This document shows positions 2,545 to 33,156 of a stretch of 36,383 nt of DNA, piece after piece; position 1 is the stretch's first letter, and each line of letters opens with the position of its first letter. The translations under genes were made by a program, and so were the position numbers. The DNA is from Chiloscyllium plagiosum (Eukaryota), in assembly GCF_004010195.1 (NCBI RefSeq), contig NC_057718.1:105710297-105746679 (forward strand). The letters are read 5' to 3'. The notes beneath the pieces were generated by a model. That model saw nothing but the letters and a program-made list of their open reading frames with translations. It searched no databases and was not told the DNA's origin.

Positions 2545-3277
2545 CTCTTCATCTAAGTTTGCAGATGACACAAAAAAGGCGGAGTGAAAGGTAATGTTGA
2601 GGAAACAGGGAGGCTGCAAAAGCACTTGGACAGGCTAGGACAGTGGGCAAAGTGGCAGCTGGAATACAATGTGGCAAAACGTTAGGTTATATACTTTGGT
2701 GGGAAGAATAAATGTGTAGACTATTTTCTAAATGGGGAAAGACTTTGGAAATCTGAAGCTGGATTAGAGTGGTGCTGGAGAAGGACAGCAGTTCAGGCAG
2801 CATCCGAGGAGCAGGGAAATCGAAGTTTCGGGCAAAAGCCCTTCATCGGAAGCACAAGGGACTTGGGAGTTCTAGTTCAGGATTCTCTTAAGGTTAACAT
2901 GCAGGTTTGTTTGGCAGTTAGAAAGGAAAATGCATTTATTTCAAGACAGATAGAATACAAGAGCAGGAATATATTACCAATGCTGTATAAGCCTCTGGTC
3001 AGACTGCAATTGGAATGTTTAGAGCAGTTTTGGGCTCCATATCTAAGGAAGGATGTGCTGGCATTGGAGGGGGTCCAAAGGTCTAAATGAACCTGGGATA
3101 AAGACATAGAGTGGAAATGGAGTGATTTTCCACTAGTAGGCGAGCCTAGGACTTAAGCATAGCCTCAAAGTGAATGGACGACCTGTTGGAACTTAGAGGA
3201 GGAGGAGATCAGCCATGATTGATTGGCAGAGCAGACTTGATGGGCCGCATGTCCTAATTTTGTTACATATTATGATC
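2545..3277 (+). mobile_element. CR1 LINE (lineage A): RT C-terminus and 3' end, internally deleted
   Basis: SKFADDTK catalytic motif at about 2552-2575. ORF 2863-3090 reads LYKPLVRLQLECLEQFWAPYLRKD..LEGVQ, a typical CR1 ORF2 C-terminus. Confidence 0.85.
2760..2848 (-). mobile_element. 89-bp Penelope-like family 1 mini-insertion with a hammerhead motif and 5-bp TSD
   Basis: Flanked by GAAGC at 2755-2759 and 2849-2853. The minus strand reads CCGATGA-A-GGGC-TTTT-GCCC-GAAA-CT-TC, an HHR core with a U4C change. Confidence 0.85.
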
Positions 3278-3777
3278 AGCTTTATTTCAAAGTAATTGTG
3301 GTGGACAATCAAACAACTCATTGGAGGAGGAATCTTCACAAATATCCCATCCTCAATAATGAGGGTGTAGAGCACAATCACTGCAAAAGCTGAAGCATTC
3401 ACAGCAATCTTCATCCAGAGGTGCTGAATGGATGATCCATTTCAGTCTCCTCCAGTATTCCCAAACATCACAGATGCTAATCTTCTGCCAATTTGATTCA
3501 CTCCATATGGTATCAAGAAACAGCTGGAGGTACTGGATACCACAAAGGCTATGAACCCTGACAACATTCTTGTGCTCCAGAACTCAGCAAGCCCCCAGAC
3601 AAGCTGTTCCAGTACATTTACAATATTGGCACCTACCTAACAATGTGGAAAATTGCCCAGGTATGCCCTGTATACAAGAGGCAGGAAAAATCTAAGCCAC
3701 TCAATTATTATCCCATCAGCCTATTCTTGATCAGTGAAGTGCCGAAAGGGTTACCAACTGTGCTATCAAGTGGCACA

Positions 3778-3990
3778 TGAAACCAATCCACTCACTCCCC
3801 ATCTCTGAAGCCAATCCAACCAGTCTGCAAACACTGGAGCCAATCCATTCCCAGTCTCATGTCACTGCCACCAATCCACTTCCAGTCCACCCATACTGCC
3901 AACAATTTGGCACTCAGTCAAGCATCAATGCCATCAATCCATGCCCAGTCTACCCTTACTGCCACCAATCCTGCACCCTGCTCAGCATCA
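3778..3990 (+). repeat. Degenerate ~31-bp minisatellite (actgccaccaatcc...ccagtc)
   Basis: The motif recurs at about 3864, 3895, 3927 and 3958, with weaker copies upstream and again at 4350-4440. Confidence 0.6.
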
Positions 3991-3991
3991 C

Positions 3992-4350
3992 TGAGGAAGC
4001 AATGACATCGAGGTAATGTCTCTGGATAAGTTATTCAGAACACCAGGCTTATGTTCTGAAAACATTTGTTCATGTTTCACCATTACAGTTAGTGAAATCT
4101 GAATTCAAAAACAACCTGGAATTTTTAAAAAAGCTAGCCTAATGGGGATCATCTAGCGATAGTTGACTGGCGTAAAAACCCAATTGATTCACTGAAATTC
4201 ATTAGTGGGGGGGGAAATCTCCATCCCTACATAGTCTAGTCTACACGTAACTCCAGATCAACAGCAATGTGACTGATCCTTATTGGGATAGGCAATAAAT
4301 GCTGGCTTAGTCATCGATGCCCACATTCCATAAACAAATAAATTTTAAAA
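3992..4350 (+). mobile_element. tRNA-derived SINE, family B
   Basis: Shares the body motif gtaaaaaccc...ttcact...ggaaatct and the 3' end gggataggcaataaatgctgg...gcccacattcc with the copies at 16283, 19947, 12330, 23445 and 27415. Confidence 0.7.
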
Positions 4351-7289
4351 ACTGCTGCAAATCTAGCACCCAGTCTGCTGTCATTGCTGCGAATACAACA
4401 CCCAGTTTACCATCTCTGCCACTAATCCAGTGTCTATCTTGCATTCAATGAAATTAGGATTTGAGCATTACAGATACACAGGGCTGGGGGGGTCCACAAA
4501 TTATCTAGGCATCAGTTTCCTAGCCTTAGATCAAAAGTGAAGCTTTATAGCTCGACAGTTATCAGACAACAGGACTTGGCTTGCTGAAACCAATGCCCCT
4601 ATGTGGGTAATAGTAGTTCAAAGATAACTGTTACATGTAAATGCTATTCAATCAGAGAGGACATTACTGGTTAACCTTGTTTTGTTCATACCTAGCATTC
4701 ACAAATATGCAATTTCCATTAAAAGCTAAACAATGGAAACAAGGAGGAGGGAGTCTTGACCAATCAGCTGTTTAGTATGGTATCACTTCCAACAGTTTTC
4801 TTCTTGAGGTTAGCTAGGCTTTCAAATCTATAAAGTTCAGTTTGACAAAGACTAATGCTGTTGTCAACTCAGTCACTGGCAGAGCCTAGACATAGGCTAT
4901 AATAATGGAGTTAAAAGCTATCATTTAGTTGTCAAACTCTAGTACAATACATATCCTATGGTTTAGGAGGCCAATAAAAATTTTACATCAGTTTTAAAAC
5001 TAACAGATGCAGTCCAGCAGAAAGTAACTGGGTAAAATTTCACACAATGAAAAAGTATGCCAATAGTTTAAGGTTAAAACTCCAGATTCTAGGGCAGAAT
5101 CGGAAGAAAGTTTAAGAACAATGGTGATTCTATGATCGTTTAGGTAGGGCATAAAGAGGAGATCATATGACTTGAATTTGATATTACAGAGTAATTGACT
5201 TCCATTAAAAAAAATTCCAACCCCAATTTCAATTAAAGGCAACTAACATTAAAACTGAAAGAGTGAAAAATAATAGGAATAATTGGCAAAGCTTTTGGAA
5301 CATGGGATTCAGATTATGTTAAACCACAGGAACAAAGCCCAATACCTAGTAATTCCTTTTTAAAACAGCATTTGCAGTTGCTATTGCAATAACCTAGTCT
5401 AACAGACTTTATCAAACCAAAATAAAATCTATTTTCAGCTACTAATAAGAGCAAGACTATATTAAATGTCTGGAACAATCGATATTTTAATAAAACTAAA
5501 TTATAAACAGAATTTTCTTGTTATAGTAATGTGACAGAAAAAAATACTCCGCAAGCATAATAAATACTAAAATTGAGCATTACAATGATCTTGGCAAAAA
5601 AGTTTCATATTATCAGTGAATCTTAACCACAAGAACAATATTTACCTGTTTTTCGGTATTACAGAGGAAAACCCTCAATTGGGCTTAAGCCCACACACCT
5701 GTGTTTTCGGGACAGGATAAGCTCAGATTAAGCTAATGTTACCAAACCTTTCTGCTGTGTCATTCAAACCACTACAGGCAATGAAGATAGGACAAGTACA
5801 TTTTAACCACTTAAAAATGCAATAATTTATTACCAGAACTAAAGTTGCACAACAAAAAATGACATTTTGCCTTAAATGTAAATGCAAAGAAAATGCTAAG
5901 AGGATTTTAATTGAAATTTTTGTTTTGAAGGTAATGACTGATATAATCATAGTTACATACACAAAAAATACACTATCAATAGCATCTTCACAAGCTTTAT
6001 TTTATATTTTGGATTGACTCATTCATACTTTTGCATTAACACAGTACCTACCTAAATGAGTTCTTAGAAGAAGCTATCTTGATCATAAAGGCCTTATTCA
6101 TTTATTTTGCTATTTATTACTCAACCATGATTCTGTACCTTTTGAAATCTATGGACACATTATTTAAGCTATATTGAATTCCCCTCTGCGTGCACATGCA
6201 AAAACAGTTTCAATGCTCACGCTCTTTTCCTTTTACACGTACTTTTACTCTGTTTTTCAGTAATTCATGTTATAATCATAATAAAATTCCAACACATACA
6301 TGATGTTCTTCATACAAATGAGGGGATCAACAGAGGTGGAATAAATTAGTGACACTGATATAATTGAAGATAACAATATTGCTATTTAATCAATAATCTA
6401 TCAGTGGTACGATAAAAATAAGTCTGTTATCATTTCAATTGGAAGATCAACTCTGCTGCCCTACCACAAACACTGTGGGCTGAGATCAAATCAACACTAC
6501 AAACTGATCAGGAGAAAGGATGCAGGAAACTAGCACTAGCTGGGTTACAAAAATCAATATTTTAATTATTTCCAAAACAAAATAAGAGGCATCCTGAACA
6601 ACAAAAAATACTTTAAATTTGCATCAGAAAATCTCCCACTGACCCAAACTCTTTTTTACCTGGTTTGTTACACATTGAAGTCCATCATCATTAACAAGAA
6701 TCCCCCAACCAACACACTGAGAAATCTACACAAGTATAGCTTCTGTTTCTACAACATCTAGTTATCAGGATGGGGCTGGATGTTTTACTGCATATTGGCA
6801 ATAGAACGTAAATGATAAGACAAATACTGCTGAAAGGCTGTATATTACTAGAGAAGCACATTTTATTAAATTTATAAATAGCATGAAAATGATTGAAAAT
6901 TTAAAAAAACTGACCAAATAACACATGATCTATAGTGTTTAACACAAAATGAAAAGTGCAGTAGACATTTCATTTTTCTTCTGTAAATTAAGGAGACTTG
7001 CATTTTGCAACGTATTGTCATTACTTGCCTACTCAAAGCTAATTAAAATAATGGATGTCTATAATTATGTTGCAAGTTATGGTTACTTGATTAATTTTTA
7101 TCATCATAATTTAGTTCCTCCTCCTATAACAATTTTTTTGAATAAACCAATTATTCACCGATCTAACCAGAACCAGTTTTTCTGGACTCAGTACTGACCT
7201 GCGCTCATAGCCCATTTTTGATTCTTGTATAGGTAGGAACTAAGAGGCAATATCAGCCAACCAAAGCATTAATATGTGCATTCAGTGAC

Positions 7290-7501
7290 TGTAATAAGGT
7301 CAGCCAGGTGGACTTCATAAAATATAAATTCCTTGATTGGGACTATTAATCTGATCCAATCAGGGAGCCTTGGCTGACAGATATAAACAGGAGTATCAGT
7401 GGTTCTGTTCACTCTGAGAGCTGGCTCAGTATCAAAGACTCTCCATGTGTAAATAAAGAATGATTTTGTGACAGGATATCGGTTTCTGTGGAGTTATTTC
7501 A
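7290..7501 (+). mobile_element. Solo LTR (212 bp)
   Basis: TGTAATAA...TTATTTCA inverted termini (TG..CA). Contains two opposed CCAAT boxes (gattgg, ccaatc), a TATA-like gatataaa and AATAAA, in LTR order. No clear TSD. Confidence 0.65.
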
Positions 7502-8189
7502 ATATGCAGCCAAATAACCCTCAAGTTTGAATCTATTTTGAAACATTGATAATGTGTCTTTGGAATCCTTATTGCTAAAAAGAAAGGAGTCCTTCTATCT
7601 ACACTAACATTTACAGTAGTCGTGATCTATTGCAGTTTGAACTACTTTCTTGTGGACCAAACACTTTAATATTTCCCATTTTCGGAGACTGAAACTCACA
7701 CATGTTCTTTTTCAACCGATTTCTGACTAAAATAGGGAAAAACAGGATGCAGGAAAGAAACATCAAGTGTACAGAGCTCCAATGGAACAAGCTCAATTCA
7801 TGCACTGTCACCTTTTTATCATTGTCCTTTAGCAGAATTCAAGTTTGCAATCATAATAGTATAAACATCTAAAACAATCCACAAAAGTGATTATGTTAAA
7901 GTGCTAAAAAGTAAACAAAATGAATGAATGATTACCCTGAAGATCAGATAAAGCTCTTCCAGCAAAAACTGTTTTTCATTACATATGTTGTAGGAAAATC
8001 AAAAAGATCACAATTGTTGAAAAATGCCATGATATTCTATCAAAAGCACCTATTTAAATAAATAGTAGATCAAAGTCTGCGATTTTAATGCCTCAGTAAA
8101 CATGCAAGCACATTTTGAAATTGAAGACTTTTTGGATGTCAGGGAAATTTGTTTTAAGAAAAACATATCAACAATTAATAAATAAATTA

Positions 8190-8560
8190 GTGGTAATTTT
8201 CATGTCTGAGATAAGAATGCTGGTTCAGGTCCCACTCCACTCCCTGTACACATACTCTTGACTCATACGTTAGTATGGTGCTGAGCAAATGTTCCAGCAT
8301 TCAGATGACAAGTAATTAGGCTTTTTCTGTCTACTTAGACAGATGAACACCACAGCAGTGTTTGAGGATAGGCAGAGTTCCAAAGAACGCTACCAAAACC
8401 GATCACCTGCCCAGTGAACTCACTGCTTTCCGCAGGTCTTGTATTTCAAACTGGCTAGTAGATTTGACTATGCAATACTGATTGCACTTTCAAAGTAATA
8501 AATTTGTTTCAAAATGTTTTTGTGCACTAGGAATATAAGAAGTGTCATATAAAATGTATG
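8190..8560 (+). mobile_element. Highly decayed DeuSINE (SacSINE1-like)
   Basis: tRNA-like head (ggttcaggtcccactcca), a Deu-domain-like middle and a 3' end cactttcaaagtaa...atataaaatgta, matched to a recalled consensus. Confidence 0.5.
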
Positions 8561-8733
8561 AATTAATAATTTATTTTAGCTTCCTGCTCAGTCAATACAG
8601 TAAGATCATAAGTAAATACCGATTATTGGAATTTAACCTGGTGACAAAATTAAGTCTAGCCAGCGCTTGATTCTTTCAGTTGTTTTTAACATCACACTGA
8701 TCAGTAAATAAGGAGTCAAATAGCATCATGCAA

Positions 8734-8822
8734 TCACCTGATGAAGGAGCCTCGCTCCGAAAGCTAGTGTGCTTCCAATTAAACCTGTTGGACTATAACC
8801 TGGTGTTGTGTGATTTTTAACT
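8734..8822 (+). mobile_element. 89-bp Penelope-like family 2 mini-insertion with a 13-bp TSD
   Basis: Perfect direct repeat TAGCATCATGCAA at 8721-8733 and 8823-8835. The insert is homologous to the reverse complement of 600-690. Confidence 0.9.
8735..8769 (+). ncRNA. Minimal type I hammerhead ribozyme motif (core intact)
   Basis: cac-CTGATGA-A-GGAGC(ctc)GCTCC-GAAA-GC-TA-gtg. Stem I is cac/gtg, stem II has 5 bp, and a palindromic AGCT replaces stem III. Predicted cleavage is after A8766. Confidence 0.8.
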
Positions 8823-9189
8823 TAGCATCATGCAAAGAAGCTTTCAAAGACAAATTCTCTAAATTGATCTAGATAAACTGGTAGTAACATTCTCAGTTTA
8901 AGGAAACCAGGTAATCTGAGGATGTAGTGAACTGTCTTTGTTAACAGACCAGCCTGATCAGTAAATAACAAGCCAGTACGAGAGATTATCTCTATTCAAT
9001 ATTGACAAAAGGCTTTTTGTTTGATTAAATTCTAAGGTATATTATATGATGCATTGTTTTTGGATTTGTAAAAGGTGTTTATTAAAATTATTATAGGCCT
9101 CTGCTTGGAGTCCTGACTTTGACAGGCAGCTGAGATGTTGGGAGAACAGTGTCAGTCCTGATTTGGTTGTAGCCTTCTGTGATTAAAGG

Positions 9190-9504
9190 TTAGATTAGAT
9201 TAGATTAGATTACTTAGGGTGGAAACAGGCCCTTCTGTCCAACAAGTCCACACCGACGCTCTGAAGAGCAACCCACCCAGACTCATTCCTCTACATTTAC
9301 CCATTCACCTAACACTACGGGCAATTTAGCAAGGTCAAATCACCTAACCTGTACATTTTTGGATTGTGGGAGGAAACCGGAGAACCCGGAGGAAACCCAC
9401 GCATGGGGAGGATGTGCAAACTCCACACAGGCAGTTTCCTGAGGCAGGAATTGAACCCGGGTCTCTGGTGCTGTGAGGCAGCAGTGCTAACCACCGTGCC
9501 ACCC
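9190..9504 (-). mobile_element. HE1 (V-SINE) copy, full length
   Basis: tRNA head with A box (ggcacggtggttagc) and B box (gggttcaattcc), V-domain core and (AATCT)n tail. Confidence 0.9.
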
Positions 9505-9669
9505 AAAATTGGAGGTTCACAATTTTCCCTCTTGGGTTTCTATTACTGGACCACAGCAGTGACAGGTTAGTAGGCAGTCAGTTTGAAACTTACAACTGGT
9601 CGGCTCTGTGGTGTTACTATAACGTGACTAGAAAAGGGGAACTGTATCACTGTTAATTGTGGAGTTTTG

Positions 9670-10042
9670 AAATATGCAGATTCTTAAGGGGCTTGACAGG
9701 GTAAATGCTGAGATGGTCTTTCCCTTCACTGGGGAGTCTAGATCCAGAGGACATAGTCTCAGAATTAAGAGGTGCTAATTTAAGAATGAGATCAGGAGGA
9801 AATTCTTCTCTTCAAGAGTTAACAGTCTTTGGAACTTCTTGCCACAGAGAGCTGTGGGGGCAGAGTGCTTGTAATATATTAAAAGCTAAGATAGAAAGAT
9901 TCTTAATCAGTAGGAGAATCAAAGATTGTAAGGAAATGGCAGGAAAGTGGATGTTAGGAATGTTGGATCCTATTGATTGGTGGAGGGGGCTCAAAGGGGT
10001 GAATGGCCTACTCCTGTTGCTGTTTCTTATGGTCTTATGATC
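9670..10042 (+). mobile_element. CR1 LINE 3' end
   Basis: ORF2 C-terminal remnant ending in ggcctactcctg...ttcttatggtcttatg. Confidence 0.8.
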
Positions 10043-12329
10043 ATGGCTGATCCCGATCTCTCAATACACGTATTCCCATTTACCCCACATATCTCACGGC
10101 ATCTTTAGCTTGTAGAAATCTATTTCTTTCTCAAATGTATTCAGTGACTTCACCTTCACTGCCTCCTGTTGTAGAGAATTCACAGGTTCACCACCGTCTG
10201 ATTGAAGATATTCTCATCTCATCTAAAATGGCCTAACACACATACTGAGACCGTGACCCACCTTGTTCTGAACCACAGCTAAAAGACACATCAGCCCTGC
10301 ACCCAGACTGTCCAGCCTTGTCAGAAGTTTATACATTTAAAGAAATCATCTCTTCCTCTAAACTCTAGCGAATGCAGGTCAGTCAACCCAATCTCTTTTG
10401 ATATGACACAACTGCCATCAAAGGATGATGAACCTTCATGCTCTCCCTCTATGGTAAGTATACCTTTTCTCAGGTAAGGAGACCAAAACTGCACCAGATT
10501 GAGTCTCATTGAGACCCTCTACAGCTGCAGTAAGACTTTCTTGCTCTGTACTCAATCCCTCATTCAAAGAAGGCCAACATACCATTTGCCTACTTGTTTG
10601 CTGAACCTGCATGCTTGCTTTAAATGACTGGTGTGTAAGGATACCCAGGCCATTTTCTACATGAACATTTCCAAATCTATCATTATTTAAGTAATAGTCT
10701 GCCATTTGATTTGTCCTAAGTGGATAAATGCACTCTTACTGTTATTCTGCACCTACTCATTTGTCCACTCACCCAACTTGTCTAAATCATCCTGAAACCT
10801 CTACATCTGCCTCTCATTTCACATTCCCAAATAATTTGTCTCTCCAGCAAATGTAGCAAAATTACATTTCATTCCCTAATCCAAATTGTTACGATGTATT
10901 GTGAAAAGCTGGGGCCTAAGTTGTGACGTGCAATAGCCAGTTCGTCACTGCCTATCACACCGACAAATTACTTATTCCTCTGTTTCCCTTCTGCTAAACA
11001 ATTCTCAATCCATGCCAGTATATTACATCCACTGTTTTGATTTTGGACAGTAATCTCTTGTGAAACCTTTTCAAAAGGTTTCTGAAAATCTGAATACAGC
11101 ACATCCACGGGTACTGCATTATGTATCCCTAGTTATGTTCTCGAACACTCCAGCAGGTTTGTCAAAAGTGATTACCCTTTCAGAAATCCATATTGATTTT
11201 GTGTAATCCCATATAATTTGTTTTTTTTTAAAAGTGTCCTACTTTCACATTCTTACTAGTTCCAGTATTTTCTCCACCAATGATGTTAGGCAAACTGGAC
11301 TGAAATTCCCAGTTTTGTCCCTCCCTTTTTCTTTTAAGTGGTGCAGTTATATTTGTCATCTTCCAATCAGCCAGGACTGTTCCCGAATTTACAGATTATT
11401 GGAAGATGGCAACTAACACATTCACTATTTCCATGGTCACCTCCTTTAGTACCTTGAAATATAGATTATCAGGCCCTGGGGATGTATCGGTTTTCAGTTC
11501 CACTAATTTCTCCAACATTTATTTCCAAGTGATTTTTTTTTTCAATTTTTACTTCTCAATAAATCCTAGCATTTCTGAGAAATTATTTGTACCTCTGTGA
11601 AGACAGAACTAAAATAGTTGTTTAATTGCTCTGCCATTTCCTTGTGCTCCAATATCAATTCTCCCATTTCTAACCTTTTCCTTTTTCAATACTTTCATCA
11701 CATTCCTTGCAAGTTTACATTCATATTCTACTTTTTTCTTCCACCAATCTCTTAGTGTTCCTTTGCTAAATGTTAAACTGCTCCCAGTCTTTAGATTTAG
11801 TATTTTTTCTGATAACTTTATGTGACTCCTCTTTGAATCTAATACTATCCTCAATTTATTTTCTTAGCCACAGTTCAACCACTTTTTCTATTGCATTCTT
11901 TCACCCAAAAGCACAGCCAACCAGCCCTTGTACCTTCACAGTTCTCCTTTAGTTCTAGAACCCTAATTTTGGATTAGGCAACTTCACTCTCTAACTGCGT
12001 GAAGAAATCTCATGTTATGGTCACTTTTTCTTAAAGGACCTCTCAATTAGATTATTGATTAGCTTCTCATCAGTGCACTAAATCATGTCTAGGTAGGCTT
12101 GTTCCCTAGTTGGCTTTTCAATTTACCGATCTATAAAAAACATCTAGCACACATTCCAGGAATTCATCTGGCATACTAAAATTATTAACGTGGTTCGTCC
12201 TGTCTATATGTAGATCTAAGTCATGATTACTGTAGCATGCATCTCTGATTTCCTACTTAACAGTGCCTCCTATCTTACCACTAATGTTTGGAGGCCTACG
12301 GAAAACTCTCACCAATGTTTTCTGCCCTT

Positions 12330-12577
12330 TTTTCAAAAAGTAATTCATGGGATATGGGTGTCATTGGCAAGGCCTAAAGGACATTAGTGAACCAGATAGC
12401 TTTCTTCTGACAATTGACAATGGTTTCATGGTCATCATTCGACTCCTAATTCCAGATATTTATTGAAGTCAAATTCCACCCCCTGGCATAGCAAGATTCG
12501 AACCTGGGTCCTTAAGATATGACCAGGGTCTCTGGATTAATAGTGTAGCGATAATACCAGTAGGTCATCACCTCTCC
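12330..12577 (-). mobile_element. Family B SINE, internally deleted
   Basis: B box ggttcgaatc on the minus strand and the core taaaggacattagtgaaccag. Confidence 0.75.
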
Positions 12578-12616
12578 TTGTTGCTTCTTAGCTCCACCCA
12601 GAGTGATTCTACAACT

Positions 12617-12935
12617 AGATTGATTAGATTAGATTACTTACAGTGTGGAAACAGGCCCTTCGGCCCAACAAGTCCACACCGCCCCGCCGAAGCGCAACCC
12701 ACCCATGCCCCTACATTTACCCCTTACCTAACACTACGGGCAATTTAGCATGGCCAATTCACCTGACCTGCACATCTTTGGACTGTGGGAGGAAACAGGA
12801 GCACCCGGAGGAAACCCACGCAGACATGGGGAGAACATGCAAACTCCACGCAGTCAATCGCCTGTGGCGGGAATTGAACCCGGGTCTCTGGTGCTGCGAG
12901 GTAGCAGTGCTAACTGCTGTGCCACCATGCCGCCC
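12617..12935 (-). mobile_element. HE1 (V-SINE) copy, full length
   Basis: Near-identical to the copies at 9190, 15769 and 33157; (AATCT)n tail. Confidence 0.92.
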
Positions 12936-13584
12936 ATTGCTTGTACCAATATCCTTTCTCACTATTGCATTGATTGAATCTTTCACAAATAATATCACCC
13001 ACTTTCTTTTCTGTTTTGCCTGTCTTTCTAAAGATTGAAAATCTTCAGATAATCAGTTCCTAGCCTTGGTCACCTTGCAGCCATTCCCTGTAATCACAAT
13101 CATATTGTACCCATTTACAATTATTTGTGCTACTAATTCATCCAACATATTGTGAATGCTCCTTGCATTCATAAATTCTATCTTTAGACTTGTCTTTGAC
13201 ATTTTTACATATTTTCTATGGCCTTATTTGTTGCTACCTCTGGTTTCTCCATCTTCCACTTTCGCCTTCCACTTTTCTACCTTTCATTTCTATCTTTGCT
13301 TGCCTCGCTCGTCTTCCCATTCAGGTTCCTGTTTCCCTGCCTCTTTAGTTTACAGCTTCCTCCATAGTACTAGCAAATTCTGGGATGCAAACTCTCCAGC
13401 TTGTCAGATCCCATCTTCTTCAGAATTGGTCCCAATGCCTCAACAATCCCTCCTTGCTACACCATTGCTGCAGCCATGCATTCAACTGGTCTATTCTCCT
13501 ATTCCTAATCTTACTAGCACACAGCACTGGGGACAACCCTGAGATTGCTCCTTTGAGATGCTGCTTTTTAATGTTAACACTTAG

Positions 13585-15525: not shown

Positions 15526-15768
15526 CTGAGAGAGAGAGCTTTGCACTTATACAGTCCTTTTCACAACAACTGGATATTTCAAAACAACTTACAGTCAATG
15601 ACAGAGGGTACATTTTAATACTTTGTTTCTATGGAGATAAAGCTGACAGGAGCTGACCTATCAGTCAAAGTCCACTCTCCCCACCTTAGCTCAATCCAAC
15701 TAGATGTACCTGTAGACCGGTTCAGCATAGAAGCTAGACAATTGACCAGCTAGGCCAGGATACTTTGT

Positions 15769-16090
15769 GGGCAGCACGGTGGCACAGTGGTTAGCACTGC
15801 TGCCTCACAGCACCAGAGACCCGGGTTCAATTCCCGTCTCAGGCGACTGACTGTGTGGAGTTTGCACATTCTCCCCGTGTCTGCGTGGGTTTCCTCTGGG
15901 TGCTCCGGTTTCCTCCCACAGTCCAAAAATATGCAGGTTAGGTGAATTGGCCATGCTAAATTGCCCATAGTGTTAGGTGAAGGGGTAAATGTAGGGGAAT
16001 GGGTCTGGGGGTGTTGTGCTTCGGAGGGTCGGTTTGGACTTGTTGGGCCGAAGGACCTGTTTCCACACTGTAAGTAATCTAATCTAATCT
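15769..16090 (+). mobile_element. HE1 (V-SINE) copy, full length
   Basis: A box tggcacagtgg, B box ggttcaattcc, V-core and tail gtaatctaatctaatct. Confidence 0.92.
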
Positions 16091-16386
16091 ACTTCATTAT
16101 ATGCTTGAGAAGAAATCTGAGGCCACATTTTCAGTGAGTCTCAGGCCAATATCTTCGGATACATGTTCTAATCGTGGCATTTGTCATTTAATTTCAGAGT
16201 CTCTACTACTCACACTTTAAGACTTTCTGTTCATCAGCTGCTTGATTCAAACTGTCGCTAAAGAAAATCTGTAAGTATGCATTATGATAATGTCACTCAA
16301 TTAATAATCCAAAGAACCACACTAATACTATGGGAAATGTGGCCTCAAATCCACCAAAGAAGCTGCTGAAACTTAAATAAATCTGG

Positions 16387-16554
16387 TACAAAACAAAGAA
16401 CTGCAGAAGCTGAAGATCTGAAATAAAAACAGATACCACTGGAGAAACTCAGCAATCTGGCAGCATCTGTGGATAAAAGGCAGAGATAAAGTTTTGAGTC
16501 CAGTGACACTTCTGAAGGCACAATGAGTTCCTCCAGCAATTTCTGTTTTGTTTC
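16387..16554 (-). mobile_element. Penelope-like family 3 insertion with a short terminal inversion and 12-bp TSD
   Basis: AAATAAATCTGG at 16375-16386 and 16555-16566. 16525-16554 is an inverted copy of part of the left portion. Confidence 0.8.
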
Positions 16555-16640
16555 AAATAAATCTGGAATTGAAAACTAGTCTCAGTGATGATAATCATGA
16601 AGGTATCATTGATTGTTATAAAAACCCTTCTAGTTCATTA

Positions 16641-16959
16641 ATTAGATTAGATTAGATTCCTTACAGTGTGGAAACAGGTCCTTTGGCCCAACAAGTCCAC
16701 ACCGACCCTCCGAAGAGTAACCCACCCAGTCCCAATTCCCTCTGATTAATGCACCTAACACTATGGGCACTTTAGCATGGCCAATTCACCTAACTTGCAC
16801 ATCTTTGGATTGTGGGAGGAAACCGGAGCACCGGGAGGAAACCCACGCAGACACAGGGAGAATGTGCAAACTCCACACACAGTCACCCAAGGCTGGAATT
16901 GAACCTAGGACCTTTGTGCTGAGAAGCAGCAGTGCTAACCACTGAGCCACCATGGCGCC
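16641..16959 (-). mobile_element. HE1 (V-SINE) copy, variant subfamily
   Basis: Same core and tail as the other HE1 copies, but a different pre-tail segment (ctctgattaatgcacc). Confidence 0.9.
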
Positions 16960-17176
16960 AAAAACATCCTTTAGGGAGGGAAATCGACTGTCCTCACCTG
17001 GTCTGGCCAACATGTGATGACAGACCCAGAGCAAGGTGGTCAACTCTTAACCGCCCTCTGAGTAAGCCATTCAATTCGAGGGCAATTAGCATGGGGTAAT
17101 AACTTCTGACTTTGTTATGTTGCCACATTCCCTAAAAGAATTAAGGGCCTTACTACATCTGCATGAGGTACAGGCG

Positions 17177-17350: not shown

Positions 17351-17592
17351 AGACCACATCTGGACTACTGTGAGCAGTTTTAGCCCCCTTATTTAAAGGA
17401 AATATATCATTTCAGTGGAGGCAGTTCAGAAAAGGTTTGCTACAATAATCCCCAGTATGGAATCGGGAAATCAAGGATTCTAGGTGAAAGGCAGGAAAGT
17501 GGACAGATCAGCCTTGATTCTACTGAATGGCAGAGCAGGCTTGAGATGTCAAATGACCTACTCCTCTCCCTGTTTCTTGGGGTCTTATGATC
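17350..17592 (+). mobile_element. CR1 LINE fragment
   Basis: RPHLDYCEQF..PYL motif and CR1 3' tail. Confidence 0.7.
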
Positions 17593-18241
17593 TCTACTGT
17601 TTTCCTGTGTCCCATTCAAATTTCAATTTTAATTCTTCTCCTCTGGTCCTATTCATTCTCATCTAGTCCTTTTCCATTTGCGATGTATGGATGGCTTTTC
17701 TGCTCCACTACAAAGAAGCAGAAGAGAAAATCAGAAAGCAATAACAAAAGTGAGAAACAGGGAAAGACGGTCAGAATTAGAAGAGCACAGGCAGGTAAAA
17801 GAAAGACTTACTAAGAACAACACCATGAGTTATTTATTCATTTATTAGCTGCTTAAGAATATTCACAACAGATTCTGAATCATCTCTTGATAATTTTCTT
17901 ATGTTGCATAAATCAAACTAGTCACCTCAAGGCTGGCTGAAGCTTTTGTGGACAGTTATTAATGATGCATGCCTATTCTTCACACCACATCAAAAGTGCT
18001 TGCCCCCTCCGTTACTTTGTACGATGTGCTCTTTTCTTTAATGCACTTAGTATTTTTAAATGGTTGTTTCGATCTTCCTTGTCACTTCAGACACATTAAC
18101 AGCACTGCCTCCAGGCTGTGTGGCATCAAAAAAATTTCCACACTCATAGTCAGTTGCTCTCTCTATTGTTGAAAATGGCTGTTATAATCCTGTTTACCTT
18201 TATTCATGCAAAGGTCATGAATTCAACAAATGGAGTAAACT

Positions 18242-18289
18242 CTGAAAACAGTACTGAAAACAGTACTGAACACAACTGAAACAGGACTA
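18242..18289 (+). repeat. Short 12-bp tandem repeat (ctgaaaacagta)
   Basis: Two perfect copies and two degenerate copies. Confidence 0.7.
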
Positions 18290-19559
18290 CATTCACAGAG
18301 CTCATTGATCAGTGAAACTTCAGAACCACTTGATGCATTTTGAAGGACTAAAACAGGAAGTTCAGTGAGATCTAGTACACTGGTCTGTACAAAGCAGCAG
18401 TAAGCGTAAGATCAGGTTTTCTTATGAACTGCATTACAAATGTGCCAATACTCTCAAATTGTGAGACATCAGGCTCAATCAATCTAAGCGTTTATAAACT
18501 ATACAATAAACTAGAATATTTTCTGAATCAGCAATGTTATAAATTCCAAGGCAACAGTACAGATGCTCCAGTCAATCTGGTGACACTATCAGACAAACAT
18601 TGACTAGTAATCTCCCTAGACTATTTGGCTTAGCTATCTATTGAGCCACTAAGCTAAATGGGGCGAGTCACCTGTACCCAAATAAATTGGAAAATTGTTT
18701 GGCATCTACAAAATGACAAAGGACACGTGAGGCAGATTCCAATAAAAAGTAGTTCTTTTTGGTTAATTAGTACTTTTTAAAAGGGAGCCAAGATCATTAG
18801 TTGTTGGAGATGTTGAGATTAATACATACTTGCATCATTCTTTTAGTTTCTACAGGAGCAAAAGTAGCAACTTAATGTTCATTAAAGTTGGAATCAAACA
18901 CTGATAGTAATAGGACAAAGAGATGCTAGATGGAATGTAAGTGTCAGGTCTTCTCCTCACATTGAACTTGGTATTCTTCTGATCATTTGATATAAGACAC
19001 TTTCTACCCAAACCGTCAAAAAGTTAAAGATGTTGACCATTTTAAACCATTATTTCTAACCATAGTTACATTCCAACTTTGACATTCCCTTAATCAGCAG
19101 CTCTCTATTTGCACTCATGCAGCACAAAAATGGACACTTTACCAATGTAGTCTCAGCTAATGTTTGATACATAGACATTCTCTGTAAAAACCTAAATACA
19201 GATTGCAATTTGGAATTTAATGTGGATTTCATTGTCTACTATTTGAGTCTCAAAATCACTATAATTTAAGAGTCAAATCTTTAGTAATAGGTTCTTAACT
19301 TAAACTTTCTACCTAGACAAAGCAGTTAAAAATTAAATGTAAAATACTGTGCTCAAGTAAATACACAATTAATAAATTACTTTTGAATACAATCAAAATC
19401 ATGTTTGAATGGTTTGATTGATGTGTATGATTTTACCTTCAATCAGCTCATGGAAATGCATCTTGTCCAGTGGAACTACATCACAAGTTATTTTAATGCT
19501 CTCAGGGGAGAATGGAAGAGAATACAGGCTAAGTTTTCTTTTCGATCCATTTGTCAGAT

Positions 19560-19895
19560 ATGGGAACTATAGTCAAGACCACAACTGCCCATTCTCAATT
19601 GCCCTCAAAAGAATGTTGAAGAGGTTGACAACTGATGATTAACCACACTGCTGAAGAACAGGACTTGCACGATGGGTGCCAGACTGGGTGAGGATAACAG
19701 ATTTCCTCCCCAAATGACATTAATAAATTTCCATCCATTAGTTACTCAGTTACCATTATGGACAGCAGCTTTTTATTCATTTCTATTCACTTAATGAACT
19801 GAATTTAAATTATTTTGTTACTATGATGAGATGTGAAGTAGTGTTTCCACCTAATCAGTCCAGGTCTCTAATTAGTCCAGTAACAAAAACCATGA
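19560..19895 (-). mobile_element. Family B SINE, decayed
   Basis: ccagactgggtgagga..cagatttcctcc..gacatta..gaatttaaatt is the reverse complement of the family core. Confidence 0.6.
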
Positions 19896-19946
19896 TGGGA
19901 GAGCTCCTGAACTAACATCCAGTAACCCCACAACTTAACAGCTTTT

Positions 19947-20343
19947 GGGAGACACTGGCCCAGTAGCAATGTCACTGAAGGAGTAATCTAACAGTCCAGA
20001 TTAATGGCCTGGGGGAATACACGTTCAAATATTACTGTGCTGATGGAATTTAAATTCAATTCGTAAAGCCTGGGATTAAAAGCTGGCCTCAGTAATTACA
20101 GCCATGAAACTATAACCGATTGTTGTAAAAATAATCCCATCAGATTCACTAACGTACTTTTGGAAGGGAAATCTATTGTGCTTATCCAGTCTGGCCTGTA
20201 TTTGACTCCACAGCCGAAACAGTGTGGTGGACTCTTATTTCCCTCTGAAAAGGCTGAACAAGCCATTTAGACCAATGGCAATCAGGGATGGGTAACAAAT
20301 ACTGACCTTATCAGCAATGTCCATATCTCAATTTTAAAAAAAA
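19947..20343 (+). mobile_element. Family B SINE, near full length
   Basis: tRNA-like head (tggcccagtag...gttcaaat), core and A-rich tail. Confidence 0.75.
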
Positions 20344-21418
20344 CTTTATAGGCATACTACAACCTTGTGATCAGTAGCATATTCTCATTTGAAGATTAGT
20401 TACTTGGGTAAAAGATTCAAGGACAATCATCACTTTCTTATAGTCAAATTGTACACACTGTTTAATTCGAATATTCTCAACTTACTGTTCTTATTTCTAA
20501 GAGGAAGGCAATAAGAAGAACAGATAACTTCCTTCCCTTTGCCACCCCTCATGCCACATACTCTAAATAAGCAAGAAACAGGTGCATTAGATTTGACAGT
20601 GCTGCCCACGTATTGACAGTTAATACATTTCTCAATGCCTGAAATATTGAAATTTAGTAAAGCACTGTTGCTGACATTCAGATTCTGGAAATTACAGAAT
20701 TAACTATATTCTGTCCATTAAAGTTCTATATTAAGCTGTAAATTGTTTGATAGTTGTAGAACCTTTCGTGAAAATCTATCAATCCATTTTGAACATCATA
20801 CATCAACATTACAGATCAACTGATTAACAATATTAGTATTTGTAAGTTTTACTAATACAAAGCAAAAACTGAACAAAATATGAAATTCAAGTAGTCTACT
20901 TCACCAAAAAGTAAAATGCCCTGGGACAATTTCAAAACTTTTGACAAATTTTGGGGTTCAGACAATCTGTGAAACACATGGACTTCAATGAAAAGCTCAG
21001 GTCAGTATCTGAAATCCCCTTTATAATTGCAATATAATTTCAAACAAAACTTACAAGTTGGCCAATGTTTTCATGATTCTTTCTGCAGTAATAGGAGCAT
21101 CATTAGCACTACATTTGTGAAACGATTAAAGGCACTGTTTGCAGAATTCTGAGGAAGACTTTTTCATAATAAATGCCAGAAACATTGATACTGTGACTCA
21201 TCTGAGCAAACATTCTGTTTTGGATACCTTACCTCTTGACTTTTCTTATTATACTTATCAGAAGTTGTTAGAAATAACTAAATTTGCAAAACATTTAAAG
21301 CTAAATTATCCACTACCCTTACTATCTAAAAGTTTGCCACATTATAGAACCTTAAAAGCTCAAAACTTGAAAACAAAAGTGAACTGACAATTATAATGAA
21401 TCTACTGCTAAACCATAC

Positions 21419-21632
21419 CTTTGGTGATGAGGATATATCGATCACAGTAGCTGGTTTGACGTACACCTTTACAGTTTCTGTCTTTGGTGTGGATGTATTG
21501 TCAGGTGCTGGAGGTGATGGTGCTTTCCTCTTTGTCTTTTTTTCTGTCTCGGCCTGTTGTACTGAAGCTGTCACTAATGAGGTTTGATACCTTGTAGAAT
21601 GTACAGCCTTCGGCTCGTAGAATGGATTAGAT
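21419..21632 (-). CDS. EHBP1: EHBP1 internal coding exon (last NPF motif and linker before the CH domain)
   Basis: Translates SNPFYEPKAVHSTRYQTSLVTASVQQAETEKKTKRKAPSPPAPD...DISSSPK, against recalled human SNPFYEPK...RVKRKAPAPP...DLSTSPK. Acceptor ttttctgttttaattag|A completes the GA|A (Glu) codon of the previous exon; donor AAG|gtatgg (phase 0); 214 bp. The intron between the two exons is 21633-25311. Confidence 0.95.
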
Positions 21633-23444
21633 CTAATTAAAACAGAAAAATATTCCTTTGACAACTTTCTTCCGTAAAATATATTTTCTTCTCATTCCAG
21701 AAATCATGTACAGTATTTTTGTTGCATCTTATAACCTTTAAACTGTGGAATAAATAAAAAATTCAGGCCACATTCGCTGTGACAAGCTTTTCATGGTTCA
21801 AAGATCATCTTGTTCGGTACTTCTTACTAAACATTTAAATAAATGTTAACTCTTATCTTAAGGTCCACATTCAGATATTAAGTGGCTTCCTGTCACTGTT
21901 CAGAATATGTCATTTGCATAGACTGTTTCCGTTAAAAAATATAAAATCTGCTTTAATGTTAATTTTAAATAATATTTCTAACCATACCAAAAAAGTGAAA
22001 ATAAATGTTACTGGTTTTAATACAACCACTTGCATAGCTTTGAAACCAGTTTTAGTTTAGCTCAGAAAATGACAGTCATTAAACAATGTCAAACATGCGC
22101 TTATTTGTTCATTTTCTTTCTGCACCTTTACAAAAGTAGTTAGAGAGAAAAAATTAGGCAATTAAAAATAAGCATTAATTTATAGTTTTATCATCAGCCA
22201 GATATAAAAACAACAACCAATTTAACCTAACATTAAACTTCTTAGATTGATATAAAGCTCTTTGTGGAAACAAATTTCATCATGGACTAGGTTTCAGTTT
22301 TTTTAAGGCAACTTTCCATTCACTATCAATAGGAAAGCAAGATGATCCTGTCGGTATAAAAAACACAATTGGTCAATTAGCCTGCTCTTGTGTCTTATAC
22401 TTGATCGACCTCTATTTTGCTGTGGTAAACCATTTGACAAGGAAACAAACAACTAGGCACTTTCAGTGCACATCACATGTCAGTCTTGAAGCTTGCCTTC
22501 CAGATCCATCTGTCATTCATGAACTTCCAATAAGACGAAGATACTCGAATGAAAGATGAGGATGACAGGACCAAATTTAACCTGCTGACAGAAGGGGTCT
22601 CTGAGGAATATTCCAGTCATCGCTAGTTTAAAACTTTAGAAGTAAAAGGGTAAAGGTATTAAAAGTATTACTGACTCAAAACGACTGTTGAGTTTTGGAA
22701 ACACAATTTGAATTTAGAATTGTAACACTATTAGTTTCTAATTAATTTCATTGGTTAACACCAAATATAAAGCAATAAAGACAATGGTTAGAAAGTAAGG
22801 CATTAAAATAAATGCCATAAGCAACAAACCATGTAACTTGTGGTCTTGCATGCATCAGTCAGAGGTTGTACTGATGCAAATAGATTGTAGAGTTTCAGAA
22901 AACATCAACACTTGGCAGCATTTTTAGGCCACATACCACTGACTCAAACTAACACTTTAAAAGGTTCAAATGACTGTCCTCCAGGCGGGGGAGTTTGGAG
23001 AGAATCTAACTCAATCTTCCTAAGCACTTAAAAAACATCCAAATTCTTATCTCAGACCTACTACTTACAATCCACAGGTTTGCTTGATCCATTCCAAGCC
23101 TCTGAATTTCTGCTTCCTTTCTCCTAACATCTTCAATACTGATGATATCTTACACTATAAGCTAAGGTCCCACAACTACATTCCTCAGTGGTAAAAAAAA
23201 GACAGTGAAATTACAAAAAATAAACCAGTTATAATTTAAAAACAAATGAATTGGAACGTGGAAGATGAGAAAAGACAAATGTTTTCATTAATGCTTACAT
23301 AATCCTGCAAAGGTTCCTCCTTATAAACTTAAGCTGCCATTATTAAAATGATCTCCACTAATTTCACCCTTGAATGTCGGCAAATTCTTGGGAAACTACA
23401 TTCTCCCACTAAGCAGGCATAGCTCTATTAGCAATAACTATATT

Positions 23445-24620
23445 TTTAAAAAATTCATTCATGGGATGCTGTCATAGCTGGCCAGGTCAGCATTTATTAC
23501 CCACCTCTGTGTTTCCAGAGTCACTTGTAGGCATGGACGGAAATTTCCTTCCCTAACGGACATTTGTAAATGAGATGGTCTTTTTTTCAATAATTGACAA
23601 CGATTTCATGTTCATTATTTGACTCAACTTCAAACTTTTATTGAATTAAAATTTCAAGTCATACAGCATGGAAGCAGACTCTTCGTTCCAACTAGTTCAC
23701 ACCAACCATGTTCTCAAACTAAACTAGTCCCACTCGCCTGCATTTGGCCCATATCCCTCCAAACCTTCTCTATTCATGTACTTATGCAAAATGTCTTTTA
23801 AATGTTGCAAACTGTACCTGCCTCCACCACTTCTATGGCAGTTCATTCTACACACAAACCAAACTTGTGTTATTTTAAAAAGAAAGTTGCCCCTCATGTC
23901 CTTTTTAAAACTTTTGCCTCTCACCTTTAAAAATACGCCCCCTTGTTTTGAACTCTCCCACCCTAGAGAAAAGATCTGCCATTCCCCTTAGCAATGTCCC
24001 TCATGACCTTATAAACCCCGATAAGGTCACCCCTCAGCCTCTGAAGCTCCAGTGGAAAAGGTCCCAGCCTATCCAGCCTCTCCTTACAACTTAAACCCTC
24101 CATTCCCAGCAACATCCTGGCAAATCTTTTCTGATCCCTCTCCAACTTAATAATACCCTTCCTATGGCAGGGTGACACATTACTCCATAAGAGGCCTCCA
24201 AATGTCCTTTACAATCTCAACATGACATCCCAACTCCTATACTCAAAGGGCTGAACAATGAAGGCAAGTGTGCCAAATGCCTTAACCACCCTGTTTACCT
24301 GTGTCGTAAATCTCAAAGAATCATGTACCTGAACCCCTAAGGTTCTCTGTTATATAATACGACCCAGGGCCCTACGATTAATTGTACAAGTACTGCCCTT
24401 ATGTTTTACAAAATGCAATACCTCGCACTTAACCAAATTAAACTCCATCTGCCACTCCTCAGCGCATTGACCTGATTGATCAAGATGTCTTTGTAATCTT
24501 AGATAGCCTTCTTCACTGTTCACTATGCTACCAATTTGATTCAAACCCAGGTCCTCAGAACATTACCTGGGTCTCTGAATTAATAATCTAGCAATAATCT
24601 CACTTGGCCATTACATCCAC
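23445..24620 (-). mobile_element. Family B SINE split by a HER1 LINE fragment
   Basis: The SINE 3' part is 23445-23656 and the 5' head is 24538-24620 (gattcaaacccagg is the B box on the minus strand). Confidence 0.65.
23657..24537 (-). mobile_element. HER1/CR1 LINE, 3' ~0.9 kb
   Basis: Minus-strand ORF remnants WQMEFN..KCEVLHF and LE.RLRGDLI.VYKVM. Confidence 0.88.
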
Positions 24621-25311
24621 TGCAATTTGCAATTCCTACATTTCAAATGTCAGAATTCAACTGAAGAAATGATCTGTCCAAAAGCTGCAAAACACTGCTC
24701 AGTAAGAAAGGAGAATTTTTAAAGATTTTAAAAGACTAAGATCTAAACTTGGTACACAATTGTTCCAAGCCTGACAACCTAAACCCACCACATTCTCAGT
24801 GCTTTTCTCAGAAGCTGTTCAATACATTTCTGGAAGAATTTAATTAATTATGTTGACATAGTAAATGCAATGCTTCACAAAATGGAAAAGATGTTCCCAA
24901 GGACCGAACCAAATTAGCCATTCACCTGGTCCCACCTGAGCTGAAGAAAAATCTGACCAGTTCGGACACGGGGTGAAATGTAAATAAATAAATAGACATC
25001 TTTTATGGTCTAAGCTGCAGTATTTATTCATGCAACCGTCTCCTTTGATGCATTTTATAGAAGAAACGTACTGGAAACTTAATTGACTAAACTAAAGTGC
25101 ATGAAATTGGATGCTCTGACTATATGATTTTTAATACCTATTAAACTCAGCTTACATAGGTGAACAAACAGGTAATGATCTCTTTCAGCATCATTGAAGG
25201 TTTAAGTGTATCCATCGGATAGCACCCGTAAGTTTTTAAGATATTAGCCTGTATGCTATTAGGTATACAAAACAAATTCAAATCAGATATTGGAATATTT
25301 TAATAACATAC

Positions 25312-25573
25312 TCATCTAATTCCTCCTCCTCTGTTTTTGTTGTATCAGCATAGAGGTACTTGCTCATGTCCACAGGTTTGACATTCTGCCTCTTCATTGG
25401 TTTAGGTGGTTCTATTGCTTCTATCCTATTTTCAATAATCCTGTCAGGTTGAGGATCATATACATCAAAGGGATTGAGAGAATTCTCATACTGTTCATTA
25501 AAAGGATTGTTAGGATCATTATCGTAGAAGGATTCTTCTGGTCTTGCGGCTGACATTGTTCCAATATTTCTCT
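25312..25573 (-). CDS. EHBP1: EHBP1 (EH domain-binding protein 1) internal coding exon, NPF-motif region
   Basis: Translates (E)RNIGTMSAARPEESFYDNDPNNPFNEQYENSLNPFDVYDPQ...KPMKRQNVKPVDMSKYLYADTTKTEEEELD(E). This matches the recalled vertebrate EHBP1 segment RKNIRPVDMSKYLYADSSKTEEEELDE and carries two NPF motifs. Acceptor tttgtttgcag|AG (phase 1), donor GA|gtatgt (phase 2); 262 bp. Confidence 0.95.
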
Positions 25574-25769
25574 CTGCAAACAAAGTTATGAGAGATTTAC
25601 ATTTGAAGTAAAACAGTTAAATGTAAAATAAATGACAGCACAGAAAATTCCTGCAAAACCTAAAATGATTATACAATTGAAGCAAAAACACAATTCTTAC
25701 TTCCATACATTTCTCTTTCTACAAAAAAAGTTGACAAGAAGAAAAGCAGGCTTTCCCAGCAAGTGTTTA

Positions 25770-26185
25770 ACATTGGAATGCAATGCTTGAGAGCATGGTG
25801 AAGGTAGAATCATAAAGTCATATGACATAGCAGCAAATAGGCTATGAAGCCCATCAAGTCTGCTCCGTCATTCAATGAGATCATGGCTGATCTGATAATC
25901 CTCAATTCCATTTTCCTCCCTTTCCTCATAATCCTCGACTCTCTTACTGATTAAAAATCTATCTCAGCCTTGAATATGCTAAACAATCTAGCCTCGACAA
26001 TCCTCTGCAGTAAAGAATTCTACAGATTTACATTACTCTGACAGAAGAGTGAATTGGATAACTATCTGGGCAGAAGATTTATTAGAGCTGCAGGAAAAAG
26101 GTGATTAGCTGAGGTGCACTTGCATAAATTCACAGTGGCACAACAGCATGAATGGCCTTCCTTGTGTGCTCCATCGTCCTATGAT
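25770..26185. mobile_element. Nested CR1 3' fragments (minus-strand copy 25815-26045 inside a plus-strand remnant)
   Basis: ttcaatgagatcatggctgatct is the reverse complement of the CR1 3' end. Confidence 0.6.
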
Positions 26186-26479
26186 ATTACCTTCAAAATG
26201 ATAGCATTCTGGGAACACCTGTGACATTGAGTAGGAAGCTACAATGAAGAGTGACTGAGGGGGAAATGCACATGCCCAGTGAAAAATCTCATAGCAATAT
26301 CCTCACAGACGATAGGGGTGTACACAATACATCAGCAGTTAATTTGTGTGGCTTAGTTCACAAACACTTCATGCAAGTGGCTATTATATCTATGAATCTT
26401 TCACAGCAATGCCTACAAACAAAAATATATTTCTGAAATGAATACCAGAACAAGCAGCATTTTTTTCACACAATGCAAG

Positions 26480-26780
26480 AAAAATCCTTTCACTGGAAAT
26501 CTAGAATGCAGGACATAATCTCCTGATAAAGGGCATATCATTTAGTACAGACAATGAGCAGAAATGTCTCCACTCAACAGCTTGTGAATCTGTGAAATTC
26601 TGCAACCTAGAGGGTCATAGATGCTCCATCACTGAATATACCCAAGACTGAGATACAGACATTTTTGATCTCTCAAGGAATCGAGGGATTTGTGAGTGGG
26701 TGGGAAAGTGGGGTGGAGAGAGAATGTTAGTCATGACCATATCAAACAGCAGAGCAGGATGGAGGGTTCCTCCTGATTCA
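26480..26780 (+). mobile_element. CR1 LINE 3' fragment
   Basis: Homologous to 9720-10020. Confidence 0.65.
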
Positions 26781-27070
26781 TTTATTTATAAATGTTTTAC
26801 TCACATTTCACAGTTACATAAACAAAACAAATCTATGTAACATAGATAGATTTGTAACATGTAACATGCTGTAGCTGAATGAACCAACAGCATCTTGTAC
26901 ATTGTCAGTTACGTTCCTTTCCCCTTCATGTTTAGCTCAGATAAAGTTAAACTTTGCCCACAGTGAGGTAAGCATATACATTTACATAACAATAAAGGTC
27001 AAATCCACAAAGTAGAATTGAAAAATGTTACAGGAAGTAATTATAGCACTTGCAGGATGTACGTTCTATA

Positions 27071-27266
27071 CAGTCAGTCCCTGCATTGCAAATGGGTTCC
27101 ATTCAGGAGTCTATTTACAAAGTGATTTGTATGCAATTCAGAACAGCTGTTCATAAGTATAGGAAATATTCATATGGCAGGTCTTAAAATTACACCCTGG
27201 ATGGATCGCATTCATAAATAAGAGTACTCGTAAGTCAGACATTCATGAATCAGGGAACCCCCAATA
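27071..27266. mobile_element. Probable decayed Tigger/pogo-type MITE
   Basis: Begins TA|cagtcagtccc and ends gggaacccc..ta, with recurring cgtaagtc-like motifs. The TIRs are degenerate. Confidence 0.4.
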
Positions 27267-27414
27267 CATAGGATTTTTAGTCTATATATAACAGATCTGC
27301 CACAGTGTCACTCACTGAGTCAATGGTGTTCATATTTTATAACCTACAAGACTGCAGAAATGATCCAATTGCAGGAAAATACTGCATTCATCCAATGGTT
27401 ATCAGCCCAATTGT

Positions 27415-27800
27415 GTTTTTTAATTTATGCATTTATGGGATGTGGGCATCTACATTAATTGTCCCACACCCCCCAACTGCCTCTTCACCCTGCTTGAACC
27501 ATTGCAGTCCACACAGTTTTAATTCCTTTGAGATTTCATAGCAGTTTGATACAACTGAGTAGTTCATTAGTCATCTCAAAGGGCATTTGCAGGTGAACCA
27601 CTTGGCTGTGGATCTGGAGTCACAGATAAGCCAGACAGGTACAAAAACAGAAATTGCTGGGAAAACTCAGCAGGTCAGGCAGCACTTTAGAGAGAAAGCA
27701 AAGTTAACATTTTGGGTCCAGTGACCCTTCTTCAGAACAGGTATGAGTGATAGCCTTCCTTCACTGGGCCAGTGACATTACAGCTACATCACCACCTCTC
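27415..27800 (-). mobile_element. Family B-related SINE or LINE 3' piece hosting a PLE mini-insertion
   Basis: atgggatgtgggcatc...gctgtggatctggagtcaca..gccaga is the reverse complement of the family B 3' half. Confidence 0.6.
27642..27736 (-). mobile_element. 95-bp Penelope-like family 3 mini-insertion with a hammerhead motif and 7-bp TSD
   Basis: ACAGGTA at 27635-27641 and 27737-27743. The minus strand reads gtt-CTGAAGA-A-GGGTC(actg)GACCC-AAAA-TG-TT-aac, with a G12A change. Confidence 0.85.
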
Positions 27801-33040: not shown

Positions 33041-33156
33041 CGCTTCCTTTGAGATCGCAGTCCACAAATGTCCCAGTTCCAATTCCTGGGCCGGGCCCAG
33101 TTACCACATTGCAGTGGGGTGGGGAGCTTTGTGTCAGCCTGAAGTTTAAAAAAAGT

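Follow-up and report, generated by a model that had tools for sequence, protein, structure and literature searches.

Insertions of endonuclease-bearing Penelope-like elements (EN+ PLEs) are described, in the accessible portions of two reports, as combining a reverse transcriptase (RT) and a GIY-YIG domain with a pseudo-LTR (pLTR) partial tandem, an adjacent inverted copy, an optional tail of 30-40 bp and target-site duplications (TSDs) of 8-18 bp, and a TATA/Inr-like motif has been noted in rotifer pLTRs (PMC8557442, PMC3846280). The minimal hammerheads of metazoan PLEs have the same core as found here, with a bulged base before stem II, a palindromic 2-nt helix III and a short helix I, and most of them are solo copies ascribed to truncated PLEs (accessible part of PMC4209133). 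In vitro work with the anole Poseidon element PAc, as far as its available text goes, identified two internal RT starts that bound the tail, extension of both strands and use of uncleaved RNA, while a 5'-truncated template gave a shorter product and no RNA ends fell at the cut site (PMC11167929). In Drosophila virilis, Penelope has a TATA-less promoter and starts about 120 nt before the hammerhead (PMC2377424, PMC4209133), the start lying within the pLTR with a 75-nt intron 46 nt downstream (PMC2377424; both sources in part). Non-LTR retrozymes are short, non-coding, hammerhead-bearing and derived from PLE pLTRs, according to the portion available (bioRxiv 10.64898/2026.07.22.740005). The 5' edge described below bears on how PLEs are copied and on the role of their hammerhead.

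The window, a stretch of 36,383 nucleotides of the Chiloscyllium plagiosum genome, contains the Penelope pieces collected in Table 1. The sequence-only reading had placed three short TSD-flanked inserts here, each starting 0-4 nt from a CUGANGA motif, and we found all three in the sequence with the coordinates, TSDs and starts it gave; because each TSD end has 2-4 nt in common with the element, each start is uncertain by 2-4 nt. Insert 1 lies in a LINE-like repeat that is uninterrupted in 11 other copies once the insert is taken out, i.e., an empty site, and for inserts 2 and 3 no empty-site homologue was found among the sampled loci. The core of insert 1, starting at 2849/2848, is mutated to CCGATGA; insert 3 has CTGAAGA at 27735 and its GAAA box is mutated to AAAA. 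Insert 2, with CTGATGA at 8738 and intact minimal hammerhead boxes, is the only one of the three with both core boxes unchanged, the other two having one change each. With +1 as the first C of CUGANGA, the self-cleavage sites of the three inserts are predicted after +28, +29 and +30. An Rfam search of the window returned no hammerhead match, and a Pfam search of three window frames returned no match.

Table 1. Penelope-derived features of the window and the TSDs of the three inserts.
Feature	Position	Strand	Description
Insert 1	2760..2848	minus	family A stub (subfamily A3), edge to short 3' end
Insert 1 TSD	2755..2759		GAAGC; second copy 2849-2853
Insert 2	8734..8822	plus	family B stub, short 3' end
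Insert 2 TSD	8721..8733		13 bp; second copy 8823-8835
Insert 3	27642..27736	minus	family C stub, short 3' end
Insert 3 TSD	27635..27641		7 bp; second copy 27737-27743
Head-to-head family A pair	31820..32040		cores at 31944 (minus) and 31951 (plus)
Longer family A insertion	35271..36383		3' arm (minus strand; hammerhead and tail) followed by plus-strand broken ORF piece
Longer family B copy	598..955	minus	own upstream TATAAA; inverted piece 412-480
Family C end fragment	342..408	minus	
Old family C fold-back pair	16425..16549		
Old family C fold-back pair	28311..28468		

Both arms of the head-to-head family A pair begin at the edge and only one carries a tail, and the broken ORF piece of the longer family A insertion covers the RT thumb, the Cys linker and the start of GIY-YIG. 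Outside these pieces, the minus strand has exon-like frames with NPF motifs at 21326-21691 and 25278-25616 that resemble exons of a putative EHBP1-like gene, in which case the inserts would be intronic. Copies of a tRNA-type SINE with GATTA-repeat ends, presumably HE1-like, occur at 9194-9503, 12618-12945, 15765-16097, 16637-16964 and 33147-33464.

Family A corresponds to the 3' end of an element that encodes RT, a Cys-rich linker and GIY-YIG; its ORF matched RVT_1 with E=8e-9 and GIY-YIG with E=3e-4, the latter just short of the Pfam cut-off. For families B and C, and for D, a fourth family used as a control, an endonuclease-like reading upstream was obtained by motif or tblastn only. In family B this is a GIY-YIG-like frame about 1 kb upstream, and no RT was seen upstream of B and C. 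We assume that B and D are Poseidon-like. The Cys-rich linker between RT and EN, a feature of the Neptune clade, reads CNRRRCNTC in A, has a decayed match in C and was not seen in B, and over 52-53 endonuclease residues the four families are 23-42% identical. To call the three inserted families unrelated, as had been done, goes too far: the ends of inserts 1 and 3 are 80% identical over 30 nt, the linker/endonuclease regions of the A and C parents are 38% identical, and A and C are relatives. The EN+ PLE arrangement, in which a single ORF placed upstream of the terminal repeat encodes RT and, at its C terminus, GIY-YIG, was found, fully so for family A, together with the inverted 5' copy, the optional 30-40 bp tail and the TSD. 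The CUGANGA and GAAA boxes, stem II and short helix I of minimal type I hammerheads were likewise present, with a stem II of 4-8 bp and a helix I of 3-4 bp in 12 of the 16 long reference copies listed. Ten fetched stretches contained no full-length copy, the long 'open frames' listed being mostly runs of N. One C-like subfamily (L195, L045, L130 and L188) has the core TTGACAA in place of CTGANGA, and this resembles the U3-A8 variant in the accessible part of PMC4209133.

To place the 5' edge genome-wide, we sampled the 3.56-Gb genome at round coordinates in 120 stretches, each 10 kb long, from which one beside the window was dropped, leaving 119 stretches and 1.153 Mb without N; copies were detected only via sequence 3' of GAAA and then extended 5' against long reference copies. 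In this sample, 69 of the 178 uncensored family A 5' ends fell in -5..+5, only 8 in -100..-21, and 55 lay 3' of +5. The edge is thus a cliff with a smear behind it rather than a single base, and the uniform spread of breakpoints that would reduce the three inserts to coincidence was not seen. When loci picked by 3' patterns were added to the sample, cliffs were located at -5/-4/-3 in A (n=203), -9/-8 in B (n=140) and -6..-2 in C (n=126), edges that were fixed after the breakpoints had been seen, and at -18 in D (n=69; 5 copies at exactly -18), where an edge near -18 to -21 had been anticipated from the promoter-like box before 40 D copies were fetched, an expectation that was unrecorded. Copies stopped at per-base rates of 0.095 in A, 0.078 in B, 0.12 in C and 0.033 in D within 2 nt of the edge, compared to 0.005, 0.003, 0.009 and 0.004, respectively, over the 50 nt upstream, i.e., 9-30 times higher in the four families. 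The sharp shared boundary proposed in the sequence-only reading is supported, as a cliff in every family. It is not simply the border of the core, from which the starts lie 8 nt upstream in B and 18 nt in D. The 335 such ends in 1.153 Mb extrapolate to about one million genome-wide, and for the 3' portion of insert 2 a pattern search counted 20,978 exact occurrences in the genome.

Copies could merely look truncated if subfamilies differed upstream of a conserved ribozyme. Upstream sequence does vary among subfamilies, and one C-like subfamily for which there was no reference inflated the ends near +28. The probability that the edge is such an alignment artefact is nonetheless almost negligible, as the edge is bracketed by TSDs, which flank 10 of the 37 solo A peak copies compared to 3% of swapped-flank controls; an inverted copy adjoins 44 of 81 peak copies, and in the genome-wide A, B and C patterns the junction flanks vary from row to row. 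By the TSD test this explanation is already largely refuted. Among the TSD-flanked solo A copies that are well supported, 15/21 start in -8..+2.

That the boundary lies about 30 nt upstream of the predicted cut, and so is not explained by self-cleavage, had been noted from the three inserts, and the genome-wide data agree: cuts are predicted after +28 to +34 across copies, and 117 well-matched A copies have no peak of ends at the cut site, so the edge is not set by cleavage. An apparent excess of C ends at +28 was rejected, since it reflected the missing reference of the C-like subfamily. Three of the 21 TSD-flanked family A copies (L144, L136 and L131) start at +27/+28, beside the predicted cut; they are possibly a minor class copied from cleaved RNA.

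We then considered the sequence around the edge. In 16/24 A, 12/13 B, 2/7 C and 3/7 D references, the edge is preceded by a TATA-like box whose first base lies 29-33 nt away, against a background of 0.002-0.005 per nt, with the limits that the family A box, TTTATCT, is a non-canonical TATA picked after the data had been seen and that references within a family are not independent. The cliff base itself is a purine after a pyrimidine, i.e., initiator-like. For the base 5' of the edge, we used genome-wide patterns that required non-reference bases just upstream and counted by eye the junction base in the first 100 rows, all from contigs C1-C3. It was G in 87/100 rows of family B (first 100 of 1499 matches), 58/100 of A (of 9336) and 45/100 of C (of 1010), whereas the count was 25/100 at a control junction placed 3 nt farther downstream in B, with 26% expected; for family B the excess over the control was significant (p=2e-19). 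Family A rows with unique flanks had G in 22/43. In family D, G was not enriched (20/63 rows; p=0.37), and it stood in 20/37 rows when 26 fold-back palindromes were taken out (p=0.001). The fetched sample showed G at the edge in 19/37 compared to 103/378 overall, its solo copies in 9/20 compared to 60/226 (p=0.07), and family A alone in 5/18. A non-templated G at the 5' junction, as expected of run-off at a cap, was therefore detected, more weakly in D and in the small fetched sample, and for many of the B and A G's the template could have been a C in the inverted partner. In a few of the D, B and A rows, the initial 10-12 nt of the leader occur a second time, as a short direct repeat ahead of the edge junction, as if RT had switched to a second template past the RNA end.

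Taken together, the inserts are short end-pieces of ordinary EN+ PLEs, and their common 5' edge is quite probably where the capped mRNA of the element starts. The sequence-only reading had favored an end point defined by structure at the CUGANGA edge, which does not fit an edge at -8 in B and -18 in D, a TATA-like box about 30 nt before it and an extra G; among the options it listed, a dedicated short transcript came closest. A leader fold, or a protein bound to it, could still set the edge if a longer RNA were trimmed to the fold's 5' border or RT were halted there. In A and C, helix I (3-4 bp) does have its 5' strand at the edge, and in B, where the edge has to be read with this caveat, a predicted long-range helix from about -9 to +76 (z=-1.7) also starts near -9. 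We consider this improbable: the D edge is at -18 while helix I covers only -3..-1, no fold clearly beats its shuffles (z from +0.7 to -1.7), and a stalling RT, which approaches a helix from the 3' direction, would be expected to stop 3' of stem II and not past it. It would also leave the extra G and the TATA spacing unexplained.

The order of parts in the leader comes from L245, a family A copy and the only one in which a partial tandem forming a pLTR-ORF junction was found. Its edge lies at 2986, its partly deleted hammerhead has the core at 2982, and the tail ends at 2877, followed after 37 nt by the ATG at 2839; no further tandem junction was found, by shared downstream sequence, among 164 A1/A2, 23 A3, 67 B, 19 C and 8 D tail ends. 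With this order, a transcript started at the edge would have the hammerhead at the front of its leader, followed by the two 3' end sites. Two classes of 3' ends occur, at about +85-95 and +115-128, and those of family A are bimodal (88 short, 90 long). An inverted piece abuts 80 of the 178 family A ends, and one long and one short arm are combined in 61 of the 67 head-to-head pairs. In L246 the promoter-like box is joined straight to the pre-ATG sequence, without the hammerhead-tail leader.

For an edge at the cap, we propose the following course. Transcription would begin in the upstream pLTR, about 30 nt past the TATA-like box and at or shortly before hammerhead helix I. The element protein would nick the target, and RT, primed at either of the two internal start sites of the leader, would copy 90-130 nt, with the ribozyme uncut, until it ran off at the cap, where it would add a C opposite the cap. 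A TSD-flanked stub would result when this cDNA was joined to the other target end; if both target strands were extended, one per start site, two cDNAs would be joined head to head. Stubs, having no upstream promoter, are predicted to be dead ends. We infer run-off copying to the cap from the L245 layout, the paired arms, the anole in vitro data and the extra G of L1; promoter, cap and priming in this genome are putative. [quoted passage not shown]

The junction might instead be fixed by self-priming on an antisense template, as proposed for rotifer Penelopes (accessible part of PMC3846280), or by fold-back of cDNA at short palindromes. Perfect fold-backs centred on GAAGCTTC in 26 of the 63 D rows and on GGAATTCC in several A rows speak for this, and so does the frequent inverted piece at family A ends. 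However, the same edge is common to solo TSD-flanked stubs, the extra G sits at an initiator-like base of the sense strand, and the joining of a long with a short arm suits two priming events over one hairpin, which makes self-priming very unlikely as the source of the edge. RNA reads were also inspected. In a single-cell poly(A) run of a related organism, 2,420 and 1,998 matching reads showed no pile-up of starts, 93-97% of them continuing into unlike sequence, and a second run had 0 matching reads; because they come from passively transcribed copies, these reads are uninformative on the start site. Position -4 (L126:3997) is the end of 3 of the 4 fold-back joints listed from that organism's RNA reads (3-4 reads each).

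We next examined if the stubs form a class of ribozyme-bounded mini-retroelements, as had been suggested, with masters and short transcripts of their own. Stubs are very abundant and have two fixed lengths, and in pooled loci the A stubs resembled other stubs beyond shuffles (0.80 compared to 0.62; 0/500), the pooled test for clustering in B-D being not significant. The pooled set, however, mixed stub-chosen with long-copy-chosen loci, and in an unbiased sample of family A (61 stubs and 25 long copies) the effect was gone (0.71 compared to 0.71; 257/500). A stub-only lineage was rejected once the selected loci were removed, and no separate mini-element lineage was found among these family A copies. 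Each of the four A subfamilies contains both stubs and long copies, the stub does not include the promoter-like box, and there are no head-to-tail tandem units of the retrozyme type, the three inserts being solo and their short neighbours head-to-head. That the stubs are a non-autonomous class is thus held to be highly improbable, and the proposed class is not sustained.

Should the edge prove to be the cap, the RNA start of each family could be read from hundreds of thousands of stubs in the genome, and a sense, capped and uncut RNA would be the usual template. Many solo minimal hammerheads and head-to-head pairs would thereby be explained, and predictions exact to the base would follow both for CAGE and for the available in vitro system.

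Compared with known systems, the tail, the inversion, the TSD and the TATA/Inr-like motifs are already known from EN+ PLEs. Truncation of such insertions is described as variable, unlike the fixed, G-marked edge of the stubs, and the accessible portions of PMC8557442 and PMC3846280 contain neither a fixed G-marked 5' edge nor a counted long/short pairing. We found no report of a cap-marked stub edge in literature searches limited to openly accessible papers. The edge layout is not universal, because the TATA-less D. virilis Penelope promoter lies about 120 nt before the hammerhead. As far as its available text extends, the anole PAc study deals in vitro with the 3' end and contains no analysis of the element's natural 5' end or of short products in the genome (PMC11167929), and PMC4209133, in its accessible part, proposes a route by cleavage and circles and gives no account of where solo copies start. 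Retrozymes, in the available portion of their description, are tandem repeats with a ribozyme in each unit, whereas the stubs are solo or head-to-head and TSD-flanked. An extra G is the mark of full-length L1 insertions and comes from copying of the cap (PMC11702581, accessible part); there too, run-off at a capped 5' end leaves one G, although L1 primes at the poly(A) end and the stubs would prime at internal sites. Altogether, the edge is real, genome-wide and informative on mechanism, but the stubs are by-products of an element class already known rather than a new kind of mini-element. Retroviral strong-stop DNA is a short cDNA that extends from an internal primer site to the cap, is tRNA-primed and does not integrate on its own; the stubs are like it in being short cDNAs that would run from an internal priming site to the cap.
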